A DNA stretch of 64,000 bases from an uncultured delta proteobacterium (GTDB lineage Bacteria > Desulfobacterota > Desulfobacteria > Desulfobacterales > B30-G6): positions 313,542 to 377,541 of the forward strand of contig CAWJIL010000003.1 in assembly GCA_963842925.1 (NCBI GenBank), written 5' to 3'. Positions 5,505 to 59,895 of the stretch are shown here, piece after piece. Position 1 is the stretch's first letter. Every line of letters starts with the position of its first letter. The notes below the pieces were generated by a model. The model made no database searches. It saw only the letters and a program-made list of their open reading frames with translations, and was not told the origin of the DNA. The translations under genes and the position numbers were made by a program.

Positions 5505-6308
5505 ATGCTTGAATCTAACTCCCATAAAACCATGATGTTCGAAAACAATACTTTCCGGACAAAAGACCAGGAGTTGATCCTTGAAGAACCCCTGTCATTG
5601 CGCATCGATGGCAATCCATACGCAGTTGTCATGCGAACACCTGGTGATGAGATTTTTCATGCGGCAGGGTTTTTTCTGTCCGAAGGGTTGGTCAATCATA
5701 AAGATAATTTCACCACGATTGGATACTGCACCGAAGAAGGCGTCAATGTGGTAACCGCCACACTCCAGCCAGAGCGAAAAAAAATCGTAAAAGATCTTCT
5801 GGAAAGACGCGGTTTTGTCAGTCAGACCAGCTGTGGCATCTGCGGCAAGGAGTTGATAAAGGACATTTATCAGATTGTAAAGCCAGTAGCCACAAACCTG
5901 GGTATGTCCATAAAGGACGCTGGATCGTGCTTTGGAAAACTTGTGGATACGCAGTCCTTGTACAAGACAACCCGGGGGGCCCATGCGGCAATGGTCCTGG
6001 ATAACCGTTTGAAGCCCATGGCATTTGCAGAGGACGTGGGACGGCACAACGCACTCGACAAAGCCATCGGCAAGGTTTTTATGGAGACACGGCTACACGA
6101 ATCCAGTCTGGTGGTGATGTCCTCACGCATCAGCTACGAACTTGTTCAAAAAGCGGCCAGAGCAGGACTCGAGATGATCATCGCCCTCTCCCGCCCCACG
6201 GCACTTGCCGTTGACCTGGCGTCACGGCTGAACATGACGCTGGCATGTATCGACAAAAGCGATGCCGTGATGGTTTTCTGCGGCAGTGAACGTTTTGAAC
6301 GGCGATAA
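5505..6308 (+). CDS. fdhD: Formate dehydrogenase accessory sulfurtransferase FdhD
   Basis: 267 aa. Family-typical SCGICG loop, HAA/GRHNALDK motifs, and correct length. Confidence 0.9.
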   Translation: MLESNSHKTMMFENNTFRTKDQELILEEPLSLRIDGNPYAVVMRTPGDEIFHAAGFFLSEGLVNHKDNFTTIGYCTEEGVNVVTATLQPERKKIVKDLLERRGFVSQTSCGICGKELIKDIYQIVKPVATNLGMSIKDAGSCFGKLVDTQSLYKTTRGAHAAMVLDNRLKPMAFAEDVGRHNALDKAIGKVFMETRLHESSLVVMSSRISYELVQKAARAGLEMIIALSRPTALAVDLASRLNMTLACIDKSDAVMVFCGSERFERR

Positions 6309-23328: not shown

Positions 23329-24315
23329 TTAAGGTTCAATACAGGCGATCAGGGTATTCACCTCCCCAGGGGCGTCCCTGTTACCAGGGGCATTTCCCTC
23401 AACAAACCGTGCCAATAGAGATTGCGGGGCAATATCCGGCAGCAGGTAGAGTTTCATGGAAAGGGGGTCCGTGGTTTCTGCAGGATAGATATCCAGCAAC
23501 CCGGAATCGCGGAGAAGAGACACGGGCATATGCACCAGTTTTTTGCAATAATCCATCAGGTCCTGTGGTTTATCTTTCTCCGTTGTCGTATCCATTTGGA
23601 CAGCCGGGACCGTCGCCACCAAGGTCAACGTTTCAATATCCGCTACATGCTCCTGTATCAAGGTCAGCACCGAAGCAGCGGTTGTCACCAGGGGTCCTTG
23701 TACGCGGCCATGGGAAAGCATGACCCGGGACCAGGCCTTCAGACGATCTAAAATCATATACTGAAACGGATCCTCATGCTCCCCTGATTGAAGAGGTATG
23801 GTGGTCCTGTCCAAAGAACGTTCATCACCCCTGAGTTCCCGGTACAGGTTTCTTTCCATGACGTCCTGCTGCTGCATTTGATGGAAGAGCCACTGGTTAT
23901 GAGCATCAAATTCCTGGGCCATCTGAAGAAAGATGCGCGCCCGGAGAAGGCTTTCCTGCGGCGTCGCATCAGGGGAAACCGGCCGTCCGGCTGCCCGGAT
24001 GTCCTGAGTTATCTGCGAAACCGATGACGACTCAAAAAACGGAACCCTGTCCTGGTAAGCCTTTAAAAAGGCGGCTGCGCCATTGCCATGGCTCCGGGCC
24101 CAACTTTCAGTTTCGGCCAGAATCTTATCCAAAGTTCGGGAAGTATCCAGGTCCGGCATCTGTACATCCAAAAAACCCTGGGCAGCCCATTGTGCCATGG
24201 GTTCCGGAATGTGTTTCACAGAGGACTGCAGAACAGTGAGGCCGCTGAAAAAACAGCGGATTGCATTGATGGTCGGTTCCATCACATAGGTATATGGAAA
24301 AAACAAAGGTTTCAT
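23329..24315 (-). CDS. Hypothetical protein (328 aa), translationally coupled to the CysK/CysRS-like fusion
   Basis: The ATG overlaps the upstream stop (ATGA, 24312-24315). I recognised no family. Confidence 0.6.
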   Translation of the reverse strand: MKPLFFPYTYVMEPTINAIRCFFSGLTVLQSSVKHIPEPMAQWAAQGFLDVQMPDLDTSRTLDKILAETESWARSHGNGAAAFLKAYQDRVPFFESSSVSQITQDIRAAGRPVSPDATPQESLLRARIFLQMAQEFDAHNQWLFHQMQQQDVMERNLYRELRGDERSLDRTTIPLQSGEHEDPFQYMILDRLKAWSRVMLSHGRVQGPLVTTAASVLTLIQEHVADIETLTLVATVPAVQMDTTTEKDKPQDLMDYCKKLVHMPVSLLRDSGLLDIYPAETTDPLSMKLYLLPDIAPQSLLARFVEGNAPGNRDAPGEVNTLIACIEP

Positions 24316-26594
24316 GAGATCTTTTCCCGGTCCCTGACCACAACACCCCGCAAGACAAGTTCTTTCCGTATTTGATCGGCAAGATCCCAGTTTCGCTGTT
24401 GTCTGGCCTGGTCACGTTTTTCTATAAGACGCCGGACGTCGGCATCCAAGATCTGTGTTTCAAATTCGAACAGGTTAAGAACCGTATCGATCTTTTTGAA
24501 GACGTCGATGATCTTGCCGGCATCCGACAGGTTAAGGGCCTCTTCCGCTATCAGCCGGTTGATCTTTTTGATCATCCTGAAAATGGATGCCAGTGCGGCT
24601 GAAATATTGAGATCGTCATCCATGGCATCTACAAAGCCGTGCCGAATGTCGTACAAAAGTTGATCCAGGTCCGGATAGAAAGGTCCATCGCGCAATTCAT
24701 GAAGTCTGGCAATACAGGAGTCCATTCTCTGGAGCGAATTTCCAGCGTTGACAAGTTTGGTCCGGGCAAATTGAACCGGTCTACGGTAATGACTCGAAAT
24801 CAGCCAGTACCGAATTTCCCTGCCCTTGAATCCCATGTCCATGAGATGCTGGATGGTCAATCCCTCTCCCTTTTCATCCATTTTCTTTCCATCCACGAGT
24901 ACCCGGTCACAATGAATCCAGAAACGTGCCAGGGGTTTTCCTGTCAAGGCTCCGGCGATAGCAATTTCATTTTCGTGGTGAGGAAAGGTCAATTCACGAC
25001 TGGCGGTATGAATGTCATAGCTGTCCCCCAGGTACTTCATAGACATGGTCGCACATTGGAGATGCCAGGAAGGACGCACGTTTCCCCAGTCGGTTTTAAC
25101 GTAGATCCCCCTTTTGAGTTCGGATAATTTGGATCGTTTCAGAAGCGTAAAATCCCGGGGATTATCCTTTTCGTATTCATCAAGATCCACCGTGGCCCCT
25201 ATCCGAATCTTGTCGATATCGACCCCGGACAAACGACCGTACTCCTTGAAACGCGAAATATCGAAATAGATCGAGCGCAGTTTTTCATAGGCCACACCCT
25301 TTCTGACCAGTTTCTCGGAAATCGATACCATGTCACCGGTGTGGTCGCTGGCCCTGGGGTATTTTTCGGCAGGTTTGATACCCAGCTGTTTCAAGTCATT
25401 TTTAAATTCATGAATATGCCGGCGGGTAAAATCGGATAGCTCCATACCGGCTTTTTCCGACCCCTCGATGGTTTTGTCATCCAAGTCGGTGATATTCATA
25501 ATGTGCGTCACATCATAACCGCGATAGTCGAGGTACCGTCTGAGCAGATCGGAAAAAACAAACCGGCGGCACTCGGCAAGATGAATTCTGGCATGCGCCG
25601 TCAATCCGCAGGAATACATGGTAACCTTGCCCGGCACCAGTGGTTCGAAAAGTTCCTTTTTGCGGGTCATGGTGTTAAACAGCTTCAGTTCCACCTTGTC
25701 CCTGATGGTGAAAAGCGGTGTGCTCAGATAACGTTCACCACCGTCCGGCAATATGACCACCAGGGTTCCTTCGGTCATGTTGCCGGCTTCCTCCAGAGCG
25801 ACGGCCATGGCTGCACCACTGCTCATACCCACAAAAAGACCTTCTTCCAGTGCAAGGCGTCTTGCCATCTCAAAAGCAACTTCGTCTTCGATATTGATTT
25901 TTCTGTCCAGACGGTTTTTATCGAATATTTCGGGTCGATAGGCCTCTTTCATATTTTTCAGGCCTTGAATTTTATGACCCAGATAGGGTTCGACGCCAAT
26001 AATCTCGATGCCGGGGTCATATGCTTTCATCCTGCGTGAGATACCCATAGCCGTGCCACTGGTTCCCAGTGTAACGATCACCTTGTCCACGTGCCCGTCT
26101 GTTTGATCCCATATTTCAGGTGCAGTGCCATCGTAGTGGGCCTGCCAGTTGGCATCATTATTGAACTGGTCCGTCATAAAATAGACCTGTGGATTTTCAC
26201 GCACCAGACGATACGCTTCCTCGATGGCGCCATCGGTCCCCAAATGACCGGGTGTCAGCAAAATTTCCGCACCCCTTGCCTTGAGAATCTTCCGCCGCTC
26301 CCCGCTGACGGATTCCGACATGGCCAAAAGGAGCCGGTAGCCCTTGACCGAACAAACCAGTGCAAGGCCAATACCTGTATTCCCGCTGGTGGCTTCGATG
26401 ACGGTCTTCTCCCGTGTGAGTTCTCCGGAGGCTTCCCCGTTTTCAATCATTCTCAATGCGGGTCGATCCTTGATGGACCCGCCGGGATTGAAATATTCCA
26501 GCTTGGCCAGGATCTTGACCCTGGGATTGGAATTTAGGGACCGGATTTCCACCATGGGGGTGTTACCGATACTGTCTAAAATCGATCTCTTCAT
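24312..26594 (-). CDS. Fusion protein: cysteine synthase (CysK/CysM, PLP) + cysteinyl-tRNA synthetase-like domain with degenerate HIGH/KMSKS
   Basis: aa 1-300 match the CysK/CysM pattern (GGSIKDR with Lys42, SGNTGIG, GTSGT). aa 303-760 are collinear with CysRS (LFNTMTRKKELF, MYSCG, NITDLDDK, WHLQC, FPHHENEIA). However, HIGH is HLAE (25572-25583) and KMSKS is KMDEK (24870-24884). Confidence 0.9.
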   Translation of the reverse strand: MKRSILDSIGNTPMVEIRSLNSNPRVKILAKLEYFNPGGSIKDRPALRMIENGEASGELTREKTVIEATSGNTGIGLALVCSVKGYRLLLAMSESVSGERRKILKARGAEILLTPGHLGTDGAIEEAYRLVRENPQVYFMTDQFNNDANWQAHYDGTAPEIWDQTDGHVDKVIVTLGTSGTAMGISRRMKAYDPGIEIIGVEPYLGHKIQGLKNMKEAYRPEIFDKNRLDRKINIEDEVAFEMARRLALEEGLFVGMSSGAAMAVALEEAGNMTEGTLVVILPDGGERYLSTPLFTIRDKVELKLFNTMTRKKELFEPLVPGKVTMYSCGLTAHARIHLAECRRFVFSDLLRRYLDYRGYDVTHIMNITDLDDKTIEGSEKAGMELSDFTRRHIHEFKNDLKQLGIKPAEKYPRASDHTGDMVSISEKLVRKGVAYEKLRSIYFDISRFKEYGRLSGVDIDKIRIGATVDLDEYEKDNPRDFTLLKRSKLSELKRGIYVKTDWGNVRPSWHLQCATMSMKYLGDSYDIHTASRELTFPHHENEIAIAGALTGKPLARFWIHCDRVLVDGKKMDEKGEGLTIQHLMDMGFKGREIRYWLISSHYRRPVQFARTKLVNAGNSLQRMDSCIARLHELRDGPFYPDLDQLLYDIRHGFVDAMDDDLNISAALASIFRMIKKINRLIAEEALNLSDAGKIIDVFKKIDTVLNLFEFETQILDADVRRLIEKRDQARQQRNWDLADQIRKELVLRGVVVRDREKIS

Positions 26595-38138: not shown

Positions 38139-41100
38139 ATGGAAGGCGTGACACCCGATACATCAGGTGGTGCACGGAAGTTCCCCACCAGGTCAGTTCC
38201 TGGAAAAGAGCTTGCAGATTCCTTGGTTGAAGATATAATATATCTTCCGGGTAGAAAAGCTGTCAAAGGTATCTTAAAAATTTGGCAATACACTCAAAGG
38301 ATGGCAGGCATGAAACATGATGTTCGCTCCCGAATGAAAAACAGACTGCGCCAATGGCAGCATGACCTCGGCGCCGTCCTGGGTCGACAAATTTATTTTG
38401 GCCGTGATCTCAGCGGGGTCCCTCGGGGCTCCCTCGTTATCTTTCCGTATCTCCCCAACAGACTGTCCTGCGGGCTGACGGGGATCGTTTCCGTTAAATC
38501 GAAACAGAATTTGGGCATCCAGATCGATATCCCTGGTCTGAAAGATCACGTCCGGTCACTCGGGCAGAAAACCATCGAGCAGTCTAGCTGGGAAGAACTC
38601 AGCGGGCAAGACCACTACCTGGGTGGAAAAGTATTTCTGACATCGCTCTATGGCCAGGTTCAGCAGTTCAAACAGACGGAAGCATTCCTGCATATCTTTA
38701 CCCACAGGGATGTCCTGGAAGAACTCCTGGAACTCGCAGAAAAGATCCAGGCCGTCATCGATTCAGAATCGGCTGTACTGTCTGAACAGGTGGGCCATCT
38801 TGCACCGGTTGAAGTGGAAACCATCACGGATTCTCTCGAGATTCTGAAAGATATCCACTGGTCTCTCAAAATCGAAATTGCCGGAAACGTTCAAAAAGTC
38901 GAAAGTCTTGCTTCCTACCCTGGGGGTATGACATCCCCATTTTTTATCAGGATATTTCGGGAAATCAATGCTGTCCTCAACAGTATCGACCGCCTGGAGG
39001 TTCGTGGAAGAGATTCGGCCGGCATCTCCGTTATGCTTCTGCTGGATGCAAAAGACTGGCGAGACCTGCGCAAAATGATCGATAACGACGGGCTGCTGGA
39101 TGCCTTTTCCAGCAGATCCTCACGCAAGGTCCTGTCCAACGGCAGCATACAAATAGACCCGGCCCGGGAATCTGACCAGAAAGATCTCGTCACCGTTGTC
39201 TTCACCTACAAGATTGCCGCTGAAATAGGCGGTCTTGGAGACAACGTTTCCTATTTGCGCCATCAGATTAAAACAGACCCCATCTTCCAACGGGCGGTAA
39301 CGTTTACACCTGTCAACTACACCATATCATCCCATACACGCTGGGCTTCCGTGGGCGCTATTACCGAATCGAACTGTCATCCCGTGGACAATATACCAGA
39401 AGGAAACAACCTTGCTGCCAGGGGAATTATCCATGCCTGCCTCAATGGTGACATCGACAATTATCTGGAAATCAAAAAAGATCTCTTAAAATCGGGTACC
39501 GTCATTCAGGATGACATCTCAACCGACACCAAGGTCATCCCCCTCCAGATCCAGAAATATCTCCAGGAAGGGGCCCCGGTGGCTGAAGCGTTTCGCCGGG
39601 CTTTGAATGACTTTAAGGGCTCGCATGCCATTTCCATGCATACCAACCTGGCCCCGGGCAAACTTTTTCTGGGCCAGCGGGGCAGTGGCCAGGCTATTTT
39701 TGTCGGCCTTTCGGAAGACCGCTATATACCGGCATCGGAAGTCTACGGCTTTGTAGAAGAGACCCCTGATTACCTGAAACTGGACGGGGAAAAAATAGTT
39801 AAGGGCGAGCACGGGGATGTGCAGGGGCAGATTTTCATCCTGGACCAGAATTCATCCGGAGGCGTCGATGGTATCGATGCCATGGCCTATGACGGCTCAC
39901 CGATTGAACTCGGGGACGCTCATGTCAAACGAACGGCCATCACGCCCAGAGATATCGATCGGCAGCACTTCCCCCACTACTTCTTGAAGGAAATTTCGGA
40001 ATCCCCCGTCTCCGTTGAAAAAACACTTCAGAACCGCTGGAAGGTAACCGGAAACGAACAATACACCACTGTACTGGACAGCACCGTGTTGAATGCGTCC
40101 ATCATCGAAGCCCTGCGTAGTGACCGGATACGAAGAATCTATTTTGTCGGCCAGGGCACGGCGGGTATCGCCGCCCAAGCCTGCGCCGACATCCTCAGTT
40201 ACTACCTGAATGATTCGAAGCTTTTTATTGACGCCCTGAAAGCATCGGAACTGAGCGGTTTTAAGATGAGCGAACACGACAGACCGGACAGTATGTCGGA
40301 CACGCTGGTAATCGCCATCAGCCAGTCGGGGACAACCACCGATACCAATCGTACAGTCGATATGGTCCGTGGGCGCGGTGCCAGAACACTGGCCATCGTC
40401 AACCGCCGGGATTCCGATATTACCTTCAAAGTCGAGGGGGTCATGTACACCAGCAGTGGCCGGGATATCGAAATGTCGGTAGCCTCTACAAAAGCTTTTT
40501 ACTCACAAATCGTGGCCGGTGCGGTTCTGGGTCTCCACATGGCTGCCGCAACAGGTCGCCGGGATATCACTTTCGTAACCGAAGAAATCAAGAAGCTGCT
40601 CGAGCTGCCGGCCCATATGAAAAAGGTCCTGGGCCAGGCAAAGCTCATCGAAGGCTCCGCCCGCAGACTTGCAGCCACAAAAACCTACTGGGCTGCCGTT
40701 GGAAGCGGACCCAACAAGGCTTCTGCCGACGAAATCAGGATCAAGCTGAGCGAACTCTGCTACAAGACCATCTCCTCGGACTATGTAGAGGACAAAAAAC
40801 ATATCGACCTCTCGTCAGAGCCCTTGATAATTGTGTGTGCGGCCGGTGCCAAAAGTTCGGTCATCGGTGACATCATCAAAGACACCGCCATTTTCAAGGC
40901 TCACAAGGCAACACCTGTGGTCATCGCCGATGAAGGGGAGACCCGATTCGATCCCTATGCGGAAGATATATTCCACGTCCCGGTTACCAGCGAACACCTG
41001 GCGCCTATTTTGAACACCCTCGTGGGTCATCTCTGGGGCTATTATGCCGCCCTGGCTATCAACGAAGGATCCAGATTTCTGCACACGTTTCGTGAAGAGA

Positions 41101-42062
41101 TCAGGGAAACCATCGAGCAGAAAGCAGCCCGGGGAATGGATGTCTACGAGGTCGTCCTGGAAAAATCATTCCGAGAGGCAATCGTAAAATTTTATAAGGA
41201 ATTTCGCGATAAAAAACAAAAACATCGCTTCCCTGTGTCCATAGCAATGGCCTCTGACCTGACACTCCTGTTGAAATACCTTTCCGGCAAACTTCCCATG
41301 CCTGATTTCGAACTCGACTTCGGAATTAAGGGTACGGCATTGAATATGATCAATACCTTTTTCACTATTATCAGCGATTCCATCAACACCATGTCCCGGC
41401 CCATCGATGCCATCAAGCACCAGGCAAAAACAGTAACCGTAGGAACCAGTCGCATCAGTGAAAAAATCAAGGGACTCCTGTTCGACTCTATGACCGAGCA
41501 CGGCATCCTCATCTCCCAGATCACCCCCAACAACGTAGTCGTTCTGAGAAATCTTCAGGAGGTTATTGCGGGTATTGGCGGTTCAATTCTTTACCGTATC
41601 AACAAGCTCGACCTGTTGAACGAACTCACCGACGAAACCACCATAGAAGTGCTGGAGAAAAAAGGCGTGTTAAAACAGATCCCCTCCCGTGTTGAAACCG
41701 ATACGACCCTCAAGGGCACCAAGCGTATTATTGTTCAAAGAAGAAACGTCTACATCGGGAAAGGGCGCAAAGATGGTCGGAGCATTCTTGTCATTCCCGC
41801 GATTTCGACATCTTCCGACAGACCCAACATCATTGAAAATCTCCTGCTCCTGAATATCTCCTTTCGTGAAAATGTGCCCCTGGCAATTATCATTAAGGCA
41901 CTTGGCGGAAAATATGAACACATAAAAAACATTGTCATGGAAAACAGTGTTCCCTGGTCGGACAGTTATCTGCAAGACTTGCAAATGGACGAGTTGTTCG
42001 GTAGATCCGCCGAAAAGAGCGGTGAAGCAATCCTGGCCACACTGGCGGACATAAAATCCTGA
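38139..42062 (+). CDS. Giant GlmS-like protein: class-II glutamine amidotransferase-like domain with insertion + two SIS domains + C-terminal extension
   Basis: CGLTGIVS (Cys111, 38469-38471) and RGRDSAGISV (aa 289-298). SIS motifs are GQGTAGIAAQ, ISQSGTTTDT and VGSGPNKASADE. A GlmS-like tail, HQAKTVTVG, sits near aa 1090, followed by about 210 more aa. The start is possibly ATG 38310 (AAAGGA SD). Confidence 0.85.
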   Translation: MEGVTPDTSGGARKFPTRSVPGKELADSLVEDIIYLPGRKAVKGILKIWQYTQRMAGMKHDVRSRMKNRLRQWQHDLGAVLGRQIYFGRDLSGVPRGSLVIFPYLPNRLSCGLTGIVSVKSKQNLGIQIDIPGLKDHVRSLGQKTIEQSSWEELSGQDHYLGGKVFLTSLYGQVQQFKQTEAFLHIFTHRDVLEELLELAEKIQAVIDSESAVLSEQVGHLAPVEVETITDSLEILKDIHWSLKIEIAGNVQKVESLASYPGGMTSPFFIRIFREINAVLNSIDRLEVRGRDSAGISVMLLLDAKDWRDLRKMIDNDGLLDAFSSRSSRKVLSNGSIQIDPARESDQKDLVTVVFTYKIAAEIGGLGDNVSYLRHQIKTDPIFQRAVTFTPVNYTISSHTRWASVGAITESNCHPVDNIPEGNNLAARGIIHACLNGDIDNYLEIKKDLLKSGTVIQDDISTDTKVIPLQIQKYLQEGAPVAEAFRRALNDFKGSHAISMHTNLAPGKLFLGQRGSGQAIFVGLSEDRYIPASEVYGFVEETPDYLKLDGEKIVKGEHGDVQGQIFILDQNSSGGVDGIDAMAYDGSPIELGDAHVKRTAITPRDIDRQHFPHYFLKEISESPVSVEKTLQNRWKVTGNEQYTTVLDSTVLNASIIEALRSDRIRRIYFVGQGTAGIAAQACADILSYYLNDSKLFIDALKASELSGFKMSEHDRPDSMSDTLVIAISQSGTTTDTNRTVDMVRGRGARTLAIVNRRDSDITFKVEGVMYTSSGRDIEMSVASTKAFYSQIVAGAVLGLHMAAATGRRDITFVTEEIKKLLELPAHMKKVLGQAKLIEGSARRLAATKTYWAAVGSGPNKASADEIRIKLSELCYKTISSDYVEDKKHIDLSSEPLIIVCAAGAKSSVIGDIIKDTAIFKAHKATPVVIADEGETRFDPYAEDIFHVPVTSEHLAPILNTLVGHLWGYYAALAINEGSRFLHTFREEIRETIEQKAARGMDVYEVVLEKSFREAIVKFYKEFRDKKQKHRFPVSIAMASDLTLLLKYLSGKLPMPDFELDFGIKGTALNMINTFFTIISDSINTMSRPIDAIKHQAKTVTVGTSRISEKIKGLLFDSMTEHGILISQITPNNVVVLRNLQEVIAGIGGSILYRINKLDLLNELTDETTIEVLEKKGVLKQIPSRVETDTTLKGTKRIIVQRRNVYIGKGRKDGRSILVIPAISTSSDRPNIIENLLLLNISFRENVPLAIIIKALGGKYEHIKNIVMENSVPWSDSYLQDLQMDELFGRSAEKSGEAILATLADIKS

Positions 42063-52989: not shown

Positions 52990-53730
52990 GTTGAAAAAAC
53001 TGATAGGCTGTTCGAAATTTGAGCGTTGAATAAGCGTTGAATGGTATTGTTTAACACAAAACTGTAAGCTATTTCAATTGCTTTTCCTTTAAGAGTCCGG
53101 CATGCTCTTAAAAAAAGTGTGGCGGCAAGTTTGTGCAACTGATAAAAAAACTGTTGAATCGGTGGGTAATCGAAGAGCCTCTCAGCAAGACTTCGGTGAG
53201 GACTGTCCATCCGCGGGGGAGGAATATTCTACCCTGCGGCAGTGCTTCGCACCGACCGTAGGTATTTTGTCTAATTCTGATTGGCTGGATAACTCCGACG
53301 AAAGCCACGGAAAACGTGCCCGCTGTTGCGGTTCACCGAAAGAGTAGCGTACTTATTGCGCTATCTGGATTCCGGATTGTCGGCGCTGCTGCGACGTTCC
53401 TCGCCCGTTCTCCGTTCCGGTATATGGAATGCATAGGAGAACTGTCGTCTATCAACTTTGGAGCGTCTATCACTATTATCCATGAGAGATGATTGCATCA
53501 TGACCCAAGTCATTACTGATAAACATTGCCCCTTGTCAACACCAAAATAGGATTCCCGTGCTTTCGTCGACATCAATCCGGAAGCATTATCTCATTTCCG
53601 CCCCGTACTTTCCTTGCAACACCTGTCGATATTGAAAAGCCCGTCAGCCGTGACAATCCAGGCTTCTTGCTTTTCTCCGGCAAGATTAGGGGAACACGCT
53701 TGCTGTTGCGGTTCAATGATAAAACTGCTA

Positions 53731-53809
53731 TACGAACGCTTATCTGCACGTTTGAGCGCTTGTTTGACGTTATTTTTCGAAGCAGTTTCGAAAAGTTATT
53801 CTGACAACC
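53731..53809 (+). repeat. Repeat family R4, second copy
   Basis: See 46820-46898. Confidence 0.8.
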
Positions 53810-53830
53810 ACCATAATTGAAGAGTACCCT

Positions 53831-53893
53831 GCAGCATGCGAATAACTGCCGCACAGCAAAACCTACAGGGAATGCGCTCCCTATTTCTGTTCA
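53831..53893 (+). repeat. R1 repeat copy
   Basis: GCAGCATGCGAATAACTGCCGCACAGCAAAACCTACAGGGAATGCGCTCCCTATTTCTGTTCA. Confidence 0.85.
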
Positions 53894-53923
53894 GAACTAT
53901 TTTCAGAATCAAAGGAGACCACC

Positions 53924-54259
53924 ATGAACGACAATGCTAGCACCCAGAAGGGCATCCCGTTCAACCTGGCAAAGCATGCCGATTACGCTGATGGATCTGT
54001 CGTCAGCAAGACCCTCATCAGGAAAGACACCGGAACCATCACTCTATTTGCTTTTGATGCCGGGCAGGGTCTTAGTGAGCACAAGGCGCCCTTTGACGCC
54101 GTGGTCACCATCCTGGATGGGCAGGCACAAATTACCATCGGTGGCAACACCACCCGTGTCAAGACCGGTGAAATGCTCATCATGCCGGCCAACATTACGC
54201 ACGCCCTGCATGCCGAAGAGCGATTTAAGATGCTCCTGGTCATGATTCGCGGTGAATAA
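53924..54259 (+). CDS. Cupin domain protein
   Basis: 111 aa. Cupin_2 pattern (G..L.EH.AP.D..V.ILDG...I.IGG......GE.L.MPAN..HAL). AAAGGAG SD. Confidence 0.8.
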   Translation: MNDNASTQKGIPFNLAKHADYADGSVVSKTLIRKDTGTITLFAFDAGQGLSEHKAPFDAVVTILDGQAQITIGGNTTRVKTGEMLIMPANITHALHAEERFKMLLVMIRGE

Positions 54260-54264
54260 TATGA

Positions 54265-55373
<1,109 letters not shown>

Positions 55374-57278: not shown

Positions 57279-57744
57279 ATCAATACAATTTATACAGGAT
57301 TTTCCCGATGTCAATTCGAAGCATCCGGTTGTTTTATTGATTCCACCATCCTTTTGTGATACCGAATCGGAGCCTTGATTTGATTTGAACGTTTTTCAAG
57401 TTCGCCCTGGAAGGATTTTAGATTTTGGATATTTTAATCGACATCTTAACCCCAGCGTTGCAAAAGCCGGAGAGATTCAGAGCCAAGGCGTCTGAGGGTG
57501 AAGTCGTAGTTTTTTACTTCGAACCCTCAGCAACGCAGGATCTGAAATTCTCCGGCTTTCCCGTAGGGTACAACAACATGGCAAAATAGACACCATTCTT
57601 AAAATTCACCTGGGAGAAAATCCAGGACATGGCGCTATCGCTACGATATTGCATATAATAACAACTCATTATATATACTTTGCCATGTTGTTTATGCAAC
57701 AATGGGGTTAATATGCCCGGAGAAGGTTTAACCAAGGAGGACCG

Positions 57745-58029
57745 ATGTCCGGTTTTCATGAAATATTGCTGGTTGCCGCCATTCTTCTGGGCATTTTATT
57801 CCTACCACGCATGCTGCAAAAAAAGGGCGCACAGACATCGACCCGCCCGGCAATCGTCATCTCACGCAATCTGCGGATAGCCATTGCCGCTTCGGTGATT
57901 TACCCGATCGTGGCTGCGGCATTTTTACAGCCATGGCGTAAAGATATGATTCTTTTTCTATATGCCGGTGTGGGACCGGTGATACTGGGTTGGCTGTTTT
58001 ACTGGGTGTTTACCGGACGCAAGAAATAA
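57745..58029 (+). CDS. Small membrane protein (94 aa, 3 TM)
   Basis: Strong SD (AAGGAGG) 5 nt before the ATG, and three hydrophobic helices. Confidence 0.6.
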   Translation: MSGFHEILLVAAILLGILFLPRMLQKKGAQTSTRPAIVISRNLRIAIAASVIYPIVAAAFLQPWRKDMILFLYAGVGPVILGWLFYWVFTGRKK

Positions 58030-58264
58030 AGCGCGTATGCTGGGAAGCCAGGACGCTCGGAAGCTGGGATGCTGCTCTCTGCTTTAAGCCGTCAACCCCC
58101 CTCAAACCCTACAAACGTAGTTGCTTTGTTCATTGTGCTCTTTGGGTTTATTGTGTTGCCTAAGGTCGTCGGTATAGAGCCATCAACTTGTTTCCGTTTC
58201 ATCAACCCAATGAACCCAAGAAGCACAACAAACTCAATGAACCCTATTCCCCTTGAACCCTATT

Positions 58265-59059
58265 CTACTGCCCCACTAGTTCCGATAATATTTGTTTCCC
58301 TTTAGCACTCAATCCCAGTGTTTCCAGTTCCCGTGACAATTGATCGCGGGTCCCATTCCCGCCTGTATATCCATTCAAACGCGCCACAGCCGTGGATGAT
58401 ACGAAATCCCGGTGCTGCGGATAGATGCGCGAAAGCTCGTTTTTGAGTTGGGTATGTTGTTTCAGAATATATTTCTGATGATAATCCTCGGCCATGGTAA
58501 AGGAACGAAGCGGTAGTACTTGTGACCGAATGGTTTCGTCATCTTTCTGCTCTACAACAGTTTTGGAATCCATGGCCAGCTGACGCTGTTCATCGTTATG
58601 GTAAAAAATTGCATTCATGTATTGCCGGGACCAGTTCCGGCTGGTCGGTTGGTGGTTGTTCCAAAAAATCTCCAGCAATTGGGCATATGTAATGCGCCCT
58701 GGGTCAAAATCCACCTGTACTGTTTCCGTGTGATCACCCATTTTTCCGTAGCTGGGCCCTTCCATTTCGCCGCCGGCATATCCCACACGCGTGCGGATAA
58801 CACCCTCGATAATCCCGAACCGGGATTCGATGCCCCAGAATCACCCCATCCCGAAAGATGCGGTTTCAAAGTTGGGTGGCACGGCCTTATCCATTGGCGG
58901 CACACCTTTTTTAACGTTCATGGAAGATTCCTTTATTTTTGTTTCCTGACTGATTGCCGGTTCCATGGGTTGCGAGCAGGTCCATAAAAAAAATATCGAA
59001 CCCAGCAGAATACAAAACCATCCATTGCCTAAGCGGTCTTTTTTCTTCATTGCATTCAT
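58265..59059 (-). CDS. msrA: Peptide-methionine (S)-S-oxide reductase MsrA, selenocysteine-containing (in-frame TGA at 58841-58843), with N-terminal signal/anchor
   Basis: ORFs 58841..59059 and 58265..58786 are in the same frame. Read-through gives ...ETASFGMG-TGA-FWGIESRFG...VGYAGG...GDHTETVQVDFDP, i.e. the GCFWG active site with TGA in place of Cys (codon 73). A hairpin follows the TGA. GAAAGGAAAGG SD. Confidence 0.85.
58806..58830 (-). promoter_or_regulatory. Candidate bacterial SECIS hairpin for msrA UGA
   Basis: The mRNA reads UCG-AAUCCCG-GUU-CGGGAUU-(AU)-CGA. It starts 10 nt after the UGA and has G/U in the apical loop. Confidence 0.6.
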
Positions 59060-59151: not shown

Positions 59152-59613
59152 TTACTGCAGCACTTCCAGCACCTTTGCAGGATGATCCGCTGCCTTGACA
59201 ACTTTTGCCCAGTGTTTGCGGACCTTGCCGTCGGGACCAATCCAGACGGTCGAACGGATCACTCCCATAACCACCTTGCCATACATCTTTTTTTCCCCGA
59301 AAGCTCCGTATTTTTCCATCACCTTCTTATCCGGGTCACACAGCAGGGGAAAAGGAATGCCATGGTCGGCAATAAACTTTTGGTGAGATGCTTGGGTATC
59401 GGGCGAAACGCCCAGGATGACCGTACCCCGTTTTTGAAATTGACCATACAGGTCACGGAAGCCTGCGGCTTCCTTGGTTCACCCGGAGGTGTTGTCCTTG
59501 GGGTAAAAATAGAGTATCACATGCTTGCCTTTAAAATCCCTGAGTGAAACCTTTTTACCGTCTGCATCCGGCAACGTGAATGCCGGTGCTGCTTTGCCTT
59601 CTCGAATTGCCAT
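59152..59613 (-). CDS. bcp: Bcp/PrxQ-type peroxiredoxin, selenocysteine-containing (in-frame TGA at 59479-59481)
   Basis: ATG 59613 with AGGAGG 5 nt upstream. The 153 codons are collinear with Bcp. The sequence is [56 protein letters not shown]...GVSPD...FPLLCDPDKKV...RSTVWIGPDGKV. The TGA is at the peroxidatic Cys position (FYPKxxTPGC). Confidence 0.87.
59457..59473 (-). promoter_or_regulatory. Candidate SECIS hairpin for bcp UGA
   Basis: The mRNA reads GGAAGCC-GCA-GGCUUCC, a perfect 7-bp stem starting 6 nt after the UGA. A second small hairpin, UGACC-UGUAU-GGUCA, lies further 3'. Confidence 0.5.
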
Positions 59614-59895
59614 TGAATCCTCCTGTGTTTGTCAAATGTGAAAAAGAGACTTTTTTACTCATACGCCTATATGTCTATTTCGTCAAGAAAGTCCCCTGTA
59701 GAGGGGCATTATACAATAAAGTCATTGATCACCTGATGGAAAGATTTGTAAAAACATGTTATATAGAAAGTACTCCACATACTATAATGCATGATCGATT
59801 GTTGAACAATTTAGAGTTGAATAAATAAGCCTTGATAATCGAGACGCTGAAAAGGAATAACAGATCAATAAACTACTGTGGTAATAGGATACAAA

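Follow-up and report, generated by a model that had tools for sequence, protein, structure and literature searches.

Within the 64,000-nucleotide stretch of DNA analyzed here (the window), we found two adjacent minus-strand genes, one for a Bcp/PrxQ-type peroxiredoxin and one for an MsrA, with an in-frame TGA in each (Table 1). An earlier note on this DNA had described the first as a 153-codon frame that runs from an ATG at 59613, preceded by AGGAGG and a 5-nt spacer, to a TAA at 59152-59154, with a TGA at codon 45 as its one interruption; re-reading of the sequence reproduced this frame in full. The note had also reported no minus-strand ORF at the locus, which does not hold: the mechanical ORF list contains 59479..59613 (44 aa) and 59152..59322 (56 aa), the latter beginning at an internal GTG. 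In translation, the active site of the peroxiredoxin reads P38-KDN-T42-SG-U45, then TKE, where U marks the TGA codon. Translation and alignment to Cys-form homologs both place this codon at the peroxidatic Cys, as had been proposed. The residue at +5 from U45 is Ala50, so the protein has no CxxxxC.

Table 1. Features of the peroxiredoxin and MsrA genes, in positions of the window
Feature	Position	Strand	Description and evidence
Predicted Sec-containing Bcp/PrxQ-type peroxiredoxin CDS	59152..59613	-	153 codons, U45, stop TAA; translation and Pfam, NCBIfam, and PDB matches
In-frame TGA, codon 45, putative Sec codon at the peroxidatic position	59479..59481	-	Motif P38-x3-T42-x2-U45
Shine-Dalgarno AGGAGG, 5 nt ahead of the ATG	59619..59624	-	Direct sequence reading
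Codon TGT for Cys92, within PLLCDP; candidate resolving Cys at a non-canonical position	59338..59340	-	Present in 30/33 TGA forms
Hairpin H1, GGAAGCC-GCA-GGCUUCC	59457..59473	-	-10.0 kcal/mol, z -2.9 alone; loop starts 12 nt past the UGA
Hairpin H2, UGACC-UGUAU-GGUCA	59441..59455	-	-6.7 kcal/mol alone; loop starts 28 nt past the UGA, G at loop position 2
Predicted Sec-containing MsrA CDS	58265..59059	-	264 codons; signal/lipobox-like N-terminus; translation, Pfam PMSR 8.7e-42
In-frame TGA, putative Sec codon of MsrA in FGMG-U-FWG	58841..58843	-	Conserved in L082, L165, and L153
MsrA SECIS-like hairpin, CGA-AUCCCG-GUU-CGGGAU-(UA)-UCG	58807..58829	-	-9.2 kcal/mol

Several other features of the window stood out. 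A 760-aa ORF at 24312..26594 (minus strand) encodes an unusual fusion, in which a complete cysteinyl-tRNA synthetase follows an N-terminal domain of the PLP-dependent, cysteine-synthase-like PALP type. A 1307-aa protein encoded at 38139..42062 (plus strand) has weak GATase and SIS (GlmS-like) matches in its middle, with about 400 N-terminal and about 500 C-terminal residues lying outside the domain matches. Two regions, 52990..54575 (about 1.6 kb) and 57315..58264 (about 0.95 kb, directly downstream of the MsrA gene), contain no convincing ORF on either strand and have no Rfam match. TPR and NUDIX proteins are encoded nearby.

To assign the peroxiredoxin to a family, we performed profile and homology searches with codon 45 read as Cys. 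The protein matched Pfam AhpC-TSA (PF00578) over residues 6-133, corresponding to profile positions 2-123/124 (E value 3.3e-43; 147 bits against a cut-off of 26). The top two NCBIfam models were PrxQ (159 bits) and Bcp PRK09437 (134 bits), and the AhpC, Tpx, and PrxU models scored at most 58 bits; the AhpC-TSA match covers essentially the whole profile, and the best models agree with the family that the earlier note had named. The scores fell below the NCBIfam equivalog cut-offs, at 159 against 260 for NF053650, a Deinococcus-specific equivalog, and at 133.9 against 140 for NF006960, an E. coli-type model for which the protein is a near miss. By these profiles, the protein is a member of the Bcp subfamily but no strict equivalog of NF053650 or NF006960. 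All 12 sequence matches in the PDB were to Bcp-type structures, including 5ENU (1e-35) and the X. campestris BCP series with 3GKK (1e-31), and the protein is collinear over its full length with Cys-type Bcp/PrxQ proteins (Xanthomonas campestris BCP, or XcBCP, 3GKK/5IIZ; 5ENU; E values 1e-31 to 1e-36). R120, in GVIRST, aligns with the Arg of GIERST in XcBCP, and P38, T42, and R120 do not vary among the aligned relatives. The Pro/Thr/Arg catalytic set is common to the Cys-type enzymes and the window protein. The same fold is expected for the window protein, which differs from the Cys-type enzymes in having a putative Sec in place of the peroxidatic Cys.

Across the 36 Pfam-supported genes of the window (16,395 codons), we found only two in-frame TGAs, and both are catalytic-Cys positions of adjacent redox enzymes, Bcp and MsrA. 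Because there are only two and both fall exactly at such sites, chance is excluded as the origin of the TGA in the peroxiredoxin. A screen for further TGA-split genes across the window returned only non-coding or overlapping frames.

It is conceivable that TGA is read here as a standard amino acid, through a reassigned code (4/25) or near-cognate read-through as Trp or Cys, since database relatives including P0001-P0007 are deposited with W at position 45. Moreover, selA, selB, selD, and tRNA-Sec (the last searched for with ARAGORN) were found neither in the 64-kb window nor on 45 related loci. However, TGA is the stop codon of 10 of the 36 Pfam-supported genes, and 141 TGG codons in these genes encode Trp as normal. 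Both in-frame TGAs occupy Cys/Sec-type catalytic sites, with a stable hairpin after each, and, by established Prx chemistry, Trp at the peroxidatic position of a peroxiredoxin would abolish catalysis. The deposited W residues, which come from short contigs, most likely arose from gene callers switching to code 4. Taken together, we consider decoding as a standard amino acid very unlikely.

To determine how widely the TGA is conserved, we compared the 120 best matches to the peroxiredoxin from a database of 5.8 billion proteins. The closest homologs, at about 72-94% protein identity, were full length and had W as residue 45; over all 120, this residue was W in about 33-34 and Cys in 86. In all four W homologs for which we checked the DNA (L081-L084), codon 45 was TGA. 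We also scanned metagenomes with the pattern YPKD[ND]TxG-TGA-xKEA and found at least 120 stretches carrying TGA-bearing Bcp genes. At least 113 metagenomic instances keep at least 95 in-frame codons past the TGA, and among the matches listed, almost all loci that do not run off a contig have 106-119 codons from the TGA to the stop. The earlier note had suggested comparing TGA with TGC in orthologs, and in these results many of them carry TGA at this codon. Finally, we calculated dN/dS between the window and six relatives. Over the 105 codons past the TGA, dN/dS was 0.07-0.15, similar to the upstream part, and the TGA was kept even between sequences with saturated synonymous sites. A lack of conservation 3' of the TGA, which the note had named as the mark of a true truncation, is the opposite of what these values indicate.

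These comparisons also bear on whether the gene is a pseudogene or carries a recent nonsense mutation or sequencing error (a TGC/TGT artefact). Gene callers produced no full-length protein at the locus, and codon 45 was TGC/TGT in 80 of the 80 best GTDB species-representative relatives; this search used a Cys query, which disfavours TGA genes in the ranking, and we treat its all-Cys outcome as a ranking bias. Against an artefact or decay, the same TGA is present in many independent assemblies across the identity range given above, the frame runs on to a proper stop in essentially every listed locus that is complete, selection past the TGA is purifying, and the neighboring MsrA has a second TGA at its own catalytic Cys. 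Given the conservation of the TGA, the dN/dS values, and the use of TGA as a stop, we regard sequencing error, pseudogenization, and code reassignment as effectively refuted, with a broken or misread gene an extremely improbable explanation. We give just as little credence to termination at the TGA with two separate products, an N-terminal peptide of 44 aa and a C-terminal fragment with its own start, as the two separate mechanical ORFs might suggest, because the first in-frame start past the TGA is the GTG at codon 98, which would leave codons 46-97 untranslated, while the 105 codons past the TGA are under strong purifying selection as a whole and a split Prx fold would have no catalytic residue. 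From these sequence comparisons we conclude that the TGA of the peroxiredoxin gene is real and selected.

Next, we characterized the neighboring MsrA gene. It starts 92 nt downstream of the peroxiredoxin gene in the same orientation, and the gap between them contains no terminator-like site; the start of the MsrA may instead be the ATG at 59050. The canonical GCFWG motif reads G-TGA-FWG in the window. The published bSECIS consensus (PMC13188914) specifies a loop of 3-9 nt, a stem of 4-16 bp, a G in the first two loop positions, a spacing of 16-37 nt, and an MFE of -7.5 or lower. The hairpin past the MsrA UGA, the GUU loop of which begins 20 nt past that codon, agrees with this consensus in every respect, and its stem carries a compensatory AU-to-CG change in the divergent copy L153 and a G-U wobble in L165. 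Among the 120 closest MsrA homologs (P0245-P0364), 116 end just past the TGA, 4 read GWFWG, and none reads GCFWG. The same predicted Sec-MsrA gene also follows the Sec-Bcp gene in L082 and L165. Since the MsrA gene independently has a TGA at its catalytic Cys together with a consensus-type SECIS hairpin, we infer that the organism decodes Sec.

The N-terminus of the MsrA (58970..59059, minus strand) is signal-peptide/lipobox-like, with FFLWTC in the window, FFLWAC in L082, and LFLMGC in P0249; P0326 and P0339 have similar N-termini. A Cys beyond the GYxGG motif was present in only 2 of 117 close homologs. These N-termini and the near-absence of further Cys suggest an exported 1-Sec MsrA. The peroxiredoxin gene is probably co-transcribed with this downstream, probably exported, MsrA.

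The remaining content of the window fits an anaerobic Gram-negative bacterium, as it encodes an aldehyde:ferredoxin oxidoreductase, FdhD, and LptD. The FdhD/NarQ-family formate dehydrogenase accessory protein is encoded at 5505..6308 (plus strand), and its presence implies that the genome also encodes a formate dehydrogenase at another site. Named relatives of the window's MetRS, at ~70% identity, are Desulfobacterales MAGs; the class traditionally containing Desulfobacterales is the Deltaproteobacteria. Among bacterial selenoproteins, FdhA is the most widespread (PMC13188914), and Deltaproteobacteria dominate the selenoprotein-rich organisms (PMC1794560).

We then assessed the RNA structure past the UGA of the peroxiredoxin. 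The hairpin that the earlier note had described, H1, is present with the sequence and position given there, beginning after 5 unpaired nucleotides past the UGA. Folded together with H2, it reaches -18.4 kcal/mol (z -4.45). The signal extends to some relatives: in sub-group A1 of the window-like Sec-Bcps (clade A), the 54 nt past the TGA have a mean z of -3.3 (7 distinct sequences) versus -0.35 in 80 Cys-form controls. Compared with the bSECIS consensus, H1 fails on spacing (12 nt versus 16-37), and the G of its loop varies, with CAA in L081. H2 agrees in loop, G, and spacing and falls short in energy (-6.7 versus the required -7.5 or lower). As a SECIS element, H1 is further weakened by its distribution: of the 28 distinct clade sequences, 21 have lesions in pair 13-21, and H1 is intact only in the 7 of sub-group A1, to which H2 is likewise specific. 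Both H1 and H2 are broken in A2, the larger sister sub-group with 21 sequences, by a GGA Gly codon that is fixed there and by Glu in place of Gln, and another stem, GGGAUUC/GAAUUCC, is predicted around the same UGUAU region. Pair counting over the 28 clade sequences, where coding constraint is strong, found no compensatory changes for H1, H2, or the A2 stem. Rfam searches matched neither a SECIS nor any other RNA family, whether across the whole window at the gathering threshold or at the locus at a permissive threshold. By folding, a structured RNA element is present past the UGA of the peroxiredoxin, and either H1 or H2 is a candidate for the helix read by SelB. The sister groups thus show two mutually exclusive structural solutions in the SECIS region. 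The Sec-Bcps of a second, larger group (clade B) have, among the metagenomic matches listed, a clearer consensus-type hairpin, GCGUGCGG-GUU-CCGCGACGC.

The two clades also differ in their Cys residues. Among the matches listed, clade A has no +5 Cys and has Cys92 (at least 32 instances), while clade B has U-x4-C and S, A, or V at position 92 (at least 64 instances); at least two clades of Sec-Bcps thus have their resolving-Cys candidates arranged in opposite ways. Of the metagenomic Sec-Bcps listed, 2 have both Cys and 15 have neither, and the anticorrelation of Cys92 with the +5 Cys (Fisher p = 2e-14) is confounded by phylogeny. Clade B loci include L085, L094, L097-L100, and about 60 more, and L121 has two Sec-Bcp genes 1.6 kb apart (at positions 2766 and 4343). 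Clade A has a mean identity of 77% to its nearest Cys forms versus 62% to the Sec forms of clade B. As clade A is closer to Cys forms than to clade B, Sec forms are interleaved with Cys forms, which agrees with the work of Zhang et al. 2006 (PMC1794560), who inferred five Cys-to-Sec events for Prx.

The known resolving-Cys positions of Cys-type Bcp/PrxQ are vacant in the window protein: the alpha2 position (+5) is Ala50, and Ile81 aligns with the alpha3 Cys of XcBCP, which we take to be the resolving Cys of that enzyme. By the known Bcp classification, these two residues make the protein 1-Cys-type, here 1-Sec. The nearest Cys forms, P0008 (78-79% identity) and P0011, also have no +5 Cys, so the switch from Cys to Sec probably occurred in a 1-Cys-type background. 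The 1-Sec mechanism that the earlier note had put forward therefore agrees with the absence of Cys at both positions; Cys92, however, is conserved in 30 of the 33 TGA forms of the clade and could act as a resolving residue. Cys92 aligns with a Ser in the FPLVSD beta-strand of XcBCP, and we know of no description of this as a resolving position. We do not claim Cys92 as the resolving residue, because the anticorrelation is confounded by phylogeny and because Cys92 also occurs in 34 of the 86 Cys forms among the 120 closest homologs.

We are highly confident that the locus encodes a functional Sec-containing peroxiredoxin of the Bcp/PrxQ type, with the UGA at codon 45 recoded as Sec, on the basis of its family, the conservation of the TGA, the purifying selection 3' of it, the use of TGA as a normal stop, and the neighboring Sec gene. 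Recoding would depend on the bacterial SelB/tRNA-Sec system, with mRNA structure in the ~40 nt just past the UGA (H1 and H2 in tandem) as the guiding signal. The selenolate of U45, activated by Thr42 and Arg120, would then attack H2O2 or an organic hydroperoxide to form a selenenic acid. Because the canonical resolving-Cys positions are empty, a reductant of the thioredoxin or glutaredoxin type would most likely reduce this selenenic acid directly, a plausible 1-Sec mechanism from the residues present; a U45-C92 selenenylsulfide is the less likely, minority alternative. With the MsrA, the peroxiredoxin may constitute a two-gene selenium-dependent unit for oxidative stress and repair in a Desulfobacterales-like anaerobe.

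COG1225 is the COG for Bcp-type proteins. A Sec-Prx family was listed under COG1225 in the Sargasso Sea study (43 genes in that set), and both Sec-peroxiredoxin (PF00578, TxxU) and Sec-MsrA (GUFWG/H) are among the experimentally verified prokaryotic selenoproteins (PMC13188914). The predicted Sec-Bcp of the window belongs to this known selenoprotein family, catalogued since 2001-2005. It shares the Pfam domain with family members such as WP_011365628.1, as well as Sec for the peroxidatic Cys in P-x3-T-x2-U; this likeness is one of domain, motif, and host group. Cys homologs of the family are widespread, with repeated Cys-to-Sec switches, and its Sec members are known from anaerobic Deltaproteobacteria, including Syntrophobacter fumaroxidans, Syntrophus, and Anaeromyxobacter. 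In the survey by Zhang et al. 2006 (PMC1794560), many Deltaproteobacteria have Sec-Prx, and S. fumaroxidans has Sec-MsrA as well. We see no essential difference between the window protein and this family, apart from its place in a sub-clade with Cys92 and no +5 Cys and the position of its gene directly upstream of a Sec-MsrA. Prx genes have been described in operonic clusters with SelW-like genes, and Prx-like genes with AhpD-like genes (PMC13188914); a Prx-MsrA cluster is not mentioned in that review.

Two other selenoprotein groups have a related fold. PrxU (NF040737), a biochemically characterized thioredoxin-dependent peroxidase of Eubacterium acidaminophilum, is also a Sec-containing AhpC/TSA-family protein but belongs to another Prx subfamily: the NF040737 model, with a cut-off of 270 bits, gives the window protein 58, and its 233 positions exceed the length of that protein by 80 residues. 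The Prx-like thiol:disulfide oxidoreductase selenoproteins likewise have an AhpC/TSA-related fold containing Sec, but they are thioredoxin-like with UxxC, whereas the window protein reads TSGU-TKE, with no Cys at +3. The neighboring MsrA resembles known Sec-containing MsrA in its FGMG-U-FWG motif, PMSR domain, and consensus-type SECIS hairpin, and it is set apart by its signal/lipobox-like N-terminus and by a clade with essentially no other Cys in the catalytic domain.

A bolder reading, which we consider possible but rather doubtful, is that clade A is a mechanistically distinct 1-Sec Bcp, with Cys92 or no resolving residue, a non-consensus tandem-hairpin SECIS, and an operon shared with an exported Sec-MsrA lipoprotein. 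Such an enzyme would have originated from a Bcp without either canonical resolving-Cys position, and sister lineages would have swapped the tandem-hairpin SECIS for a different stem. If true, anaerobic Desulfobacterales would have a module dedicated to selenium-based defence against peroxide and Met sulfoxide, with one component at work outside the cytoplasm.

A Sec-Bcp in a Desulfobacterales genome, the reading that we prefer, is no surprise to a specialist, and the main value of these results lies in annotation, as both Bcp and MsrA are systematically mis-called in public databases. In public calls, the predicted Sec-Bcps appear with W at the active site (P0001-P0007, P0009, P0010, P0012, and others) or as fragments, and the nearest relatives of the predicted Sec-MsrA (116 of 120) appear as proteins of 158-195 aa without the catalytic motif. 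The interest that is left lies in the 1-Sec/Cys92 sub-clade, in the two SECIS-region structures, and in the pairing with an apparently exported Sec-MsrA free of a resolving Cys. With this locus, the selenoprotein inventory of a Desulfobacterales-type anaerobe would grow by two, and the apparent export of the Sec-MsrA draws attention to the reductant that a selenoenzyme would need in the periplasm.
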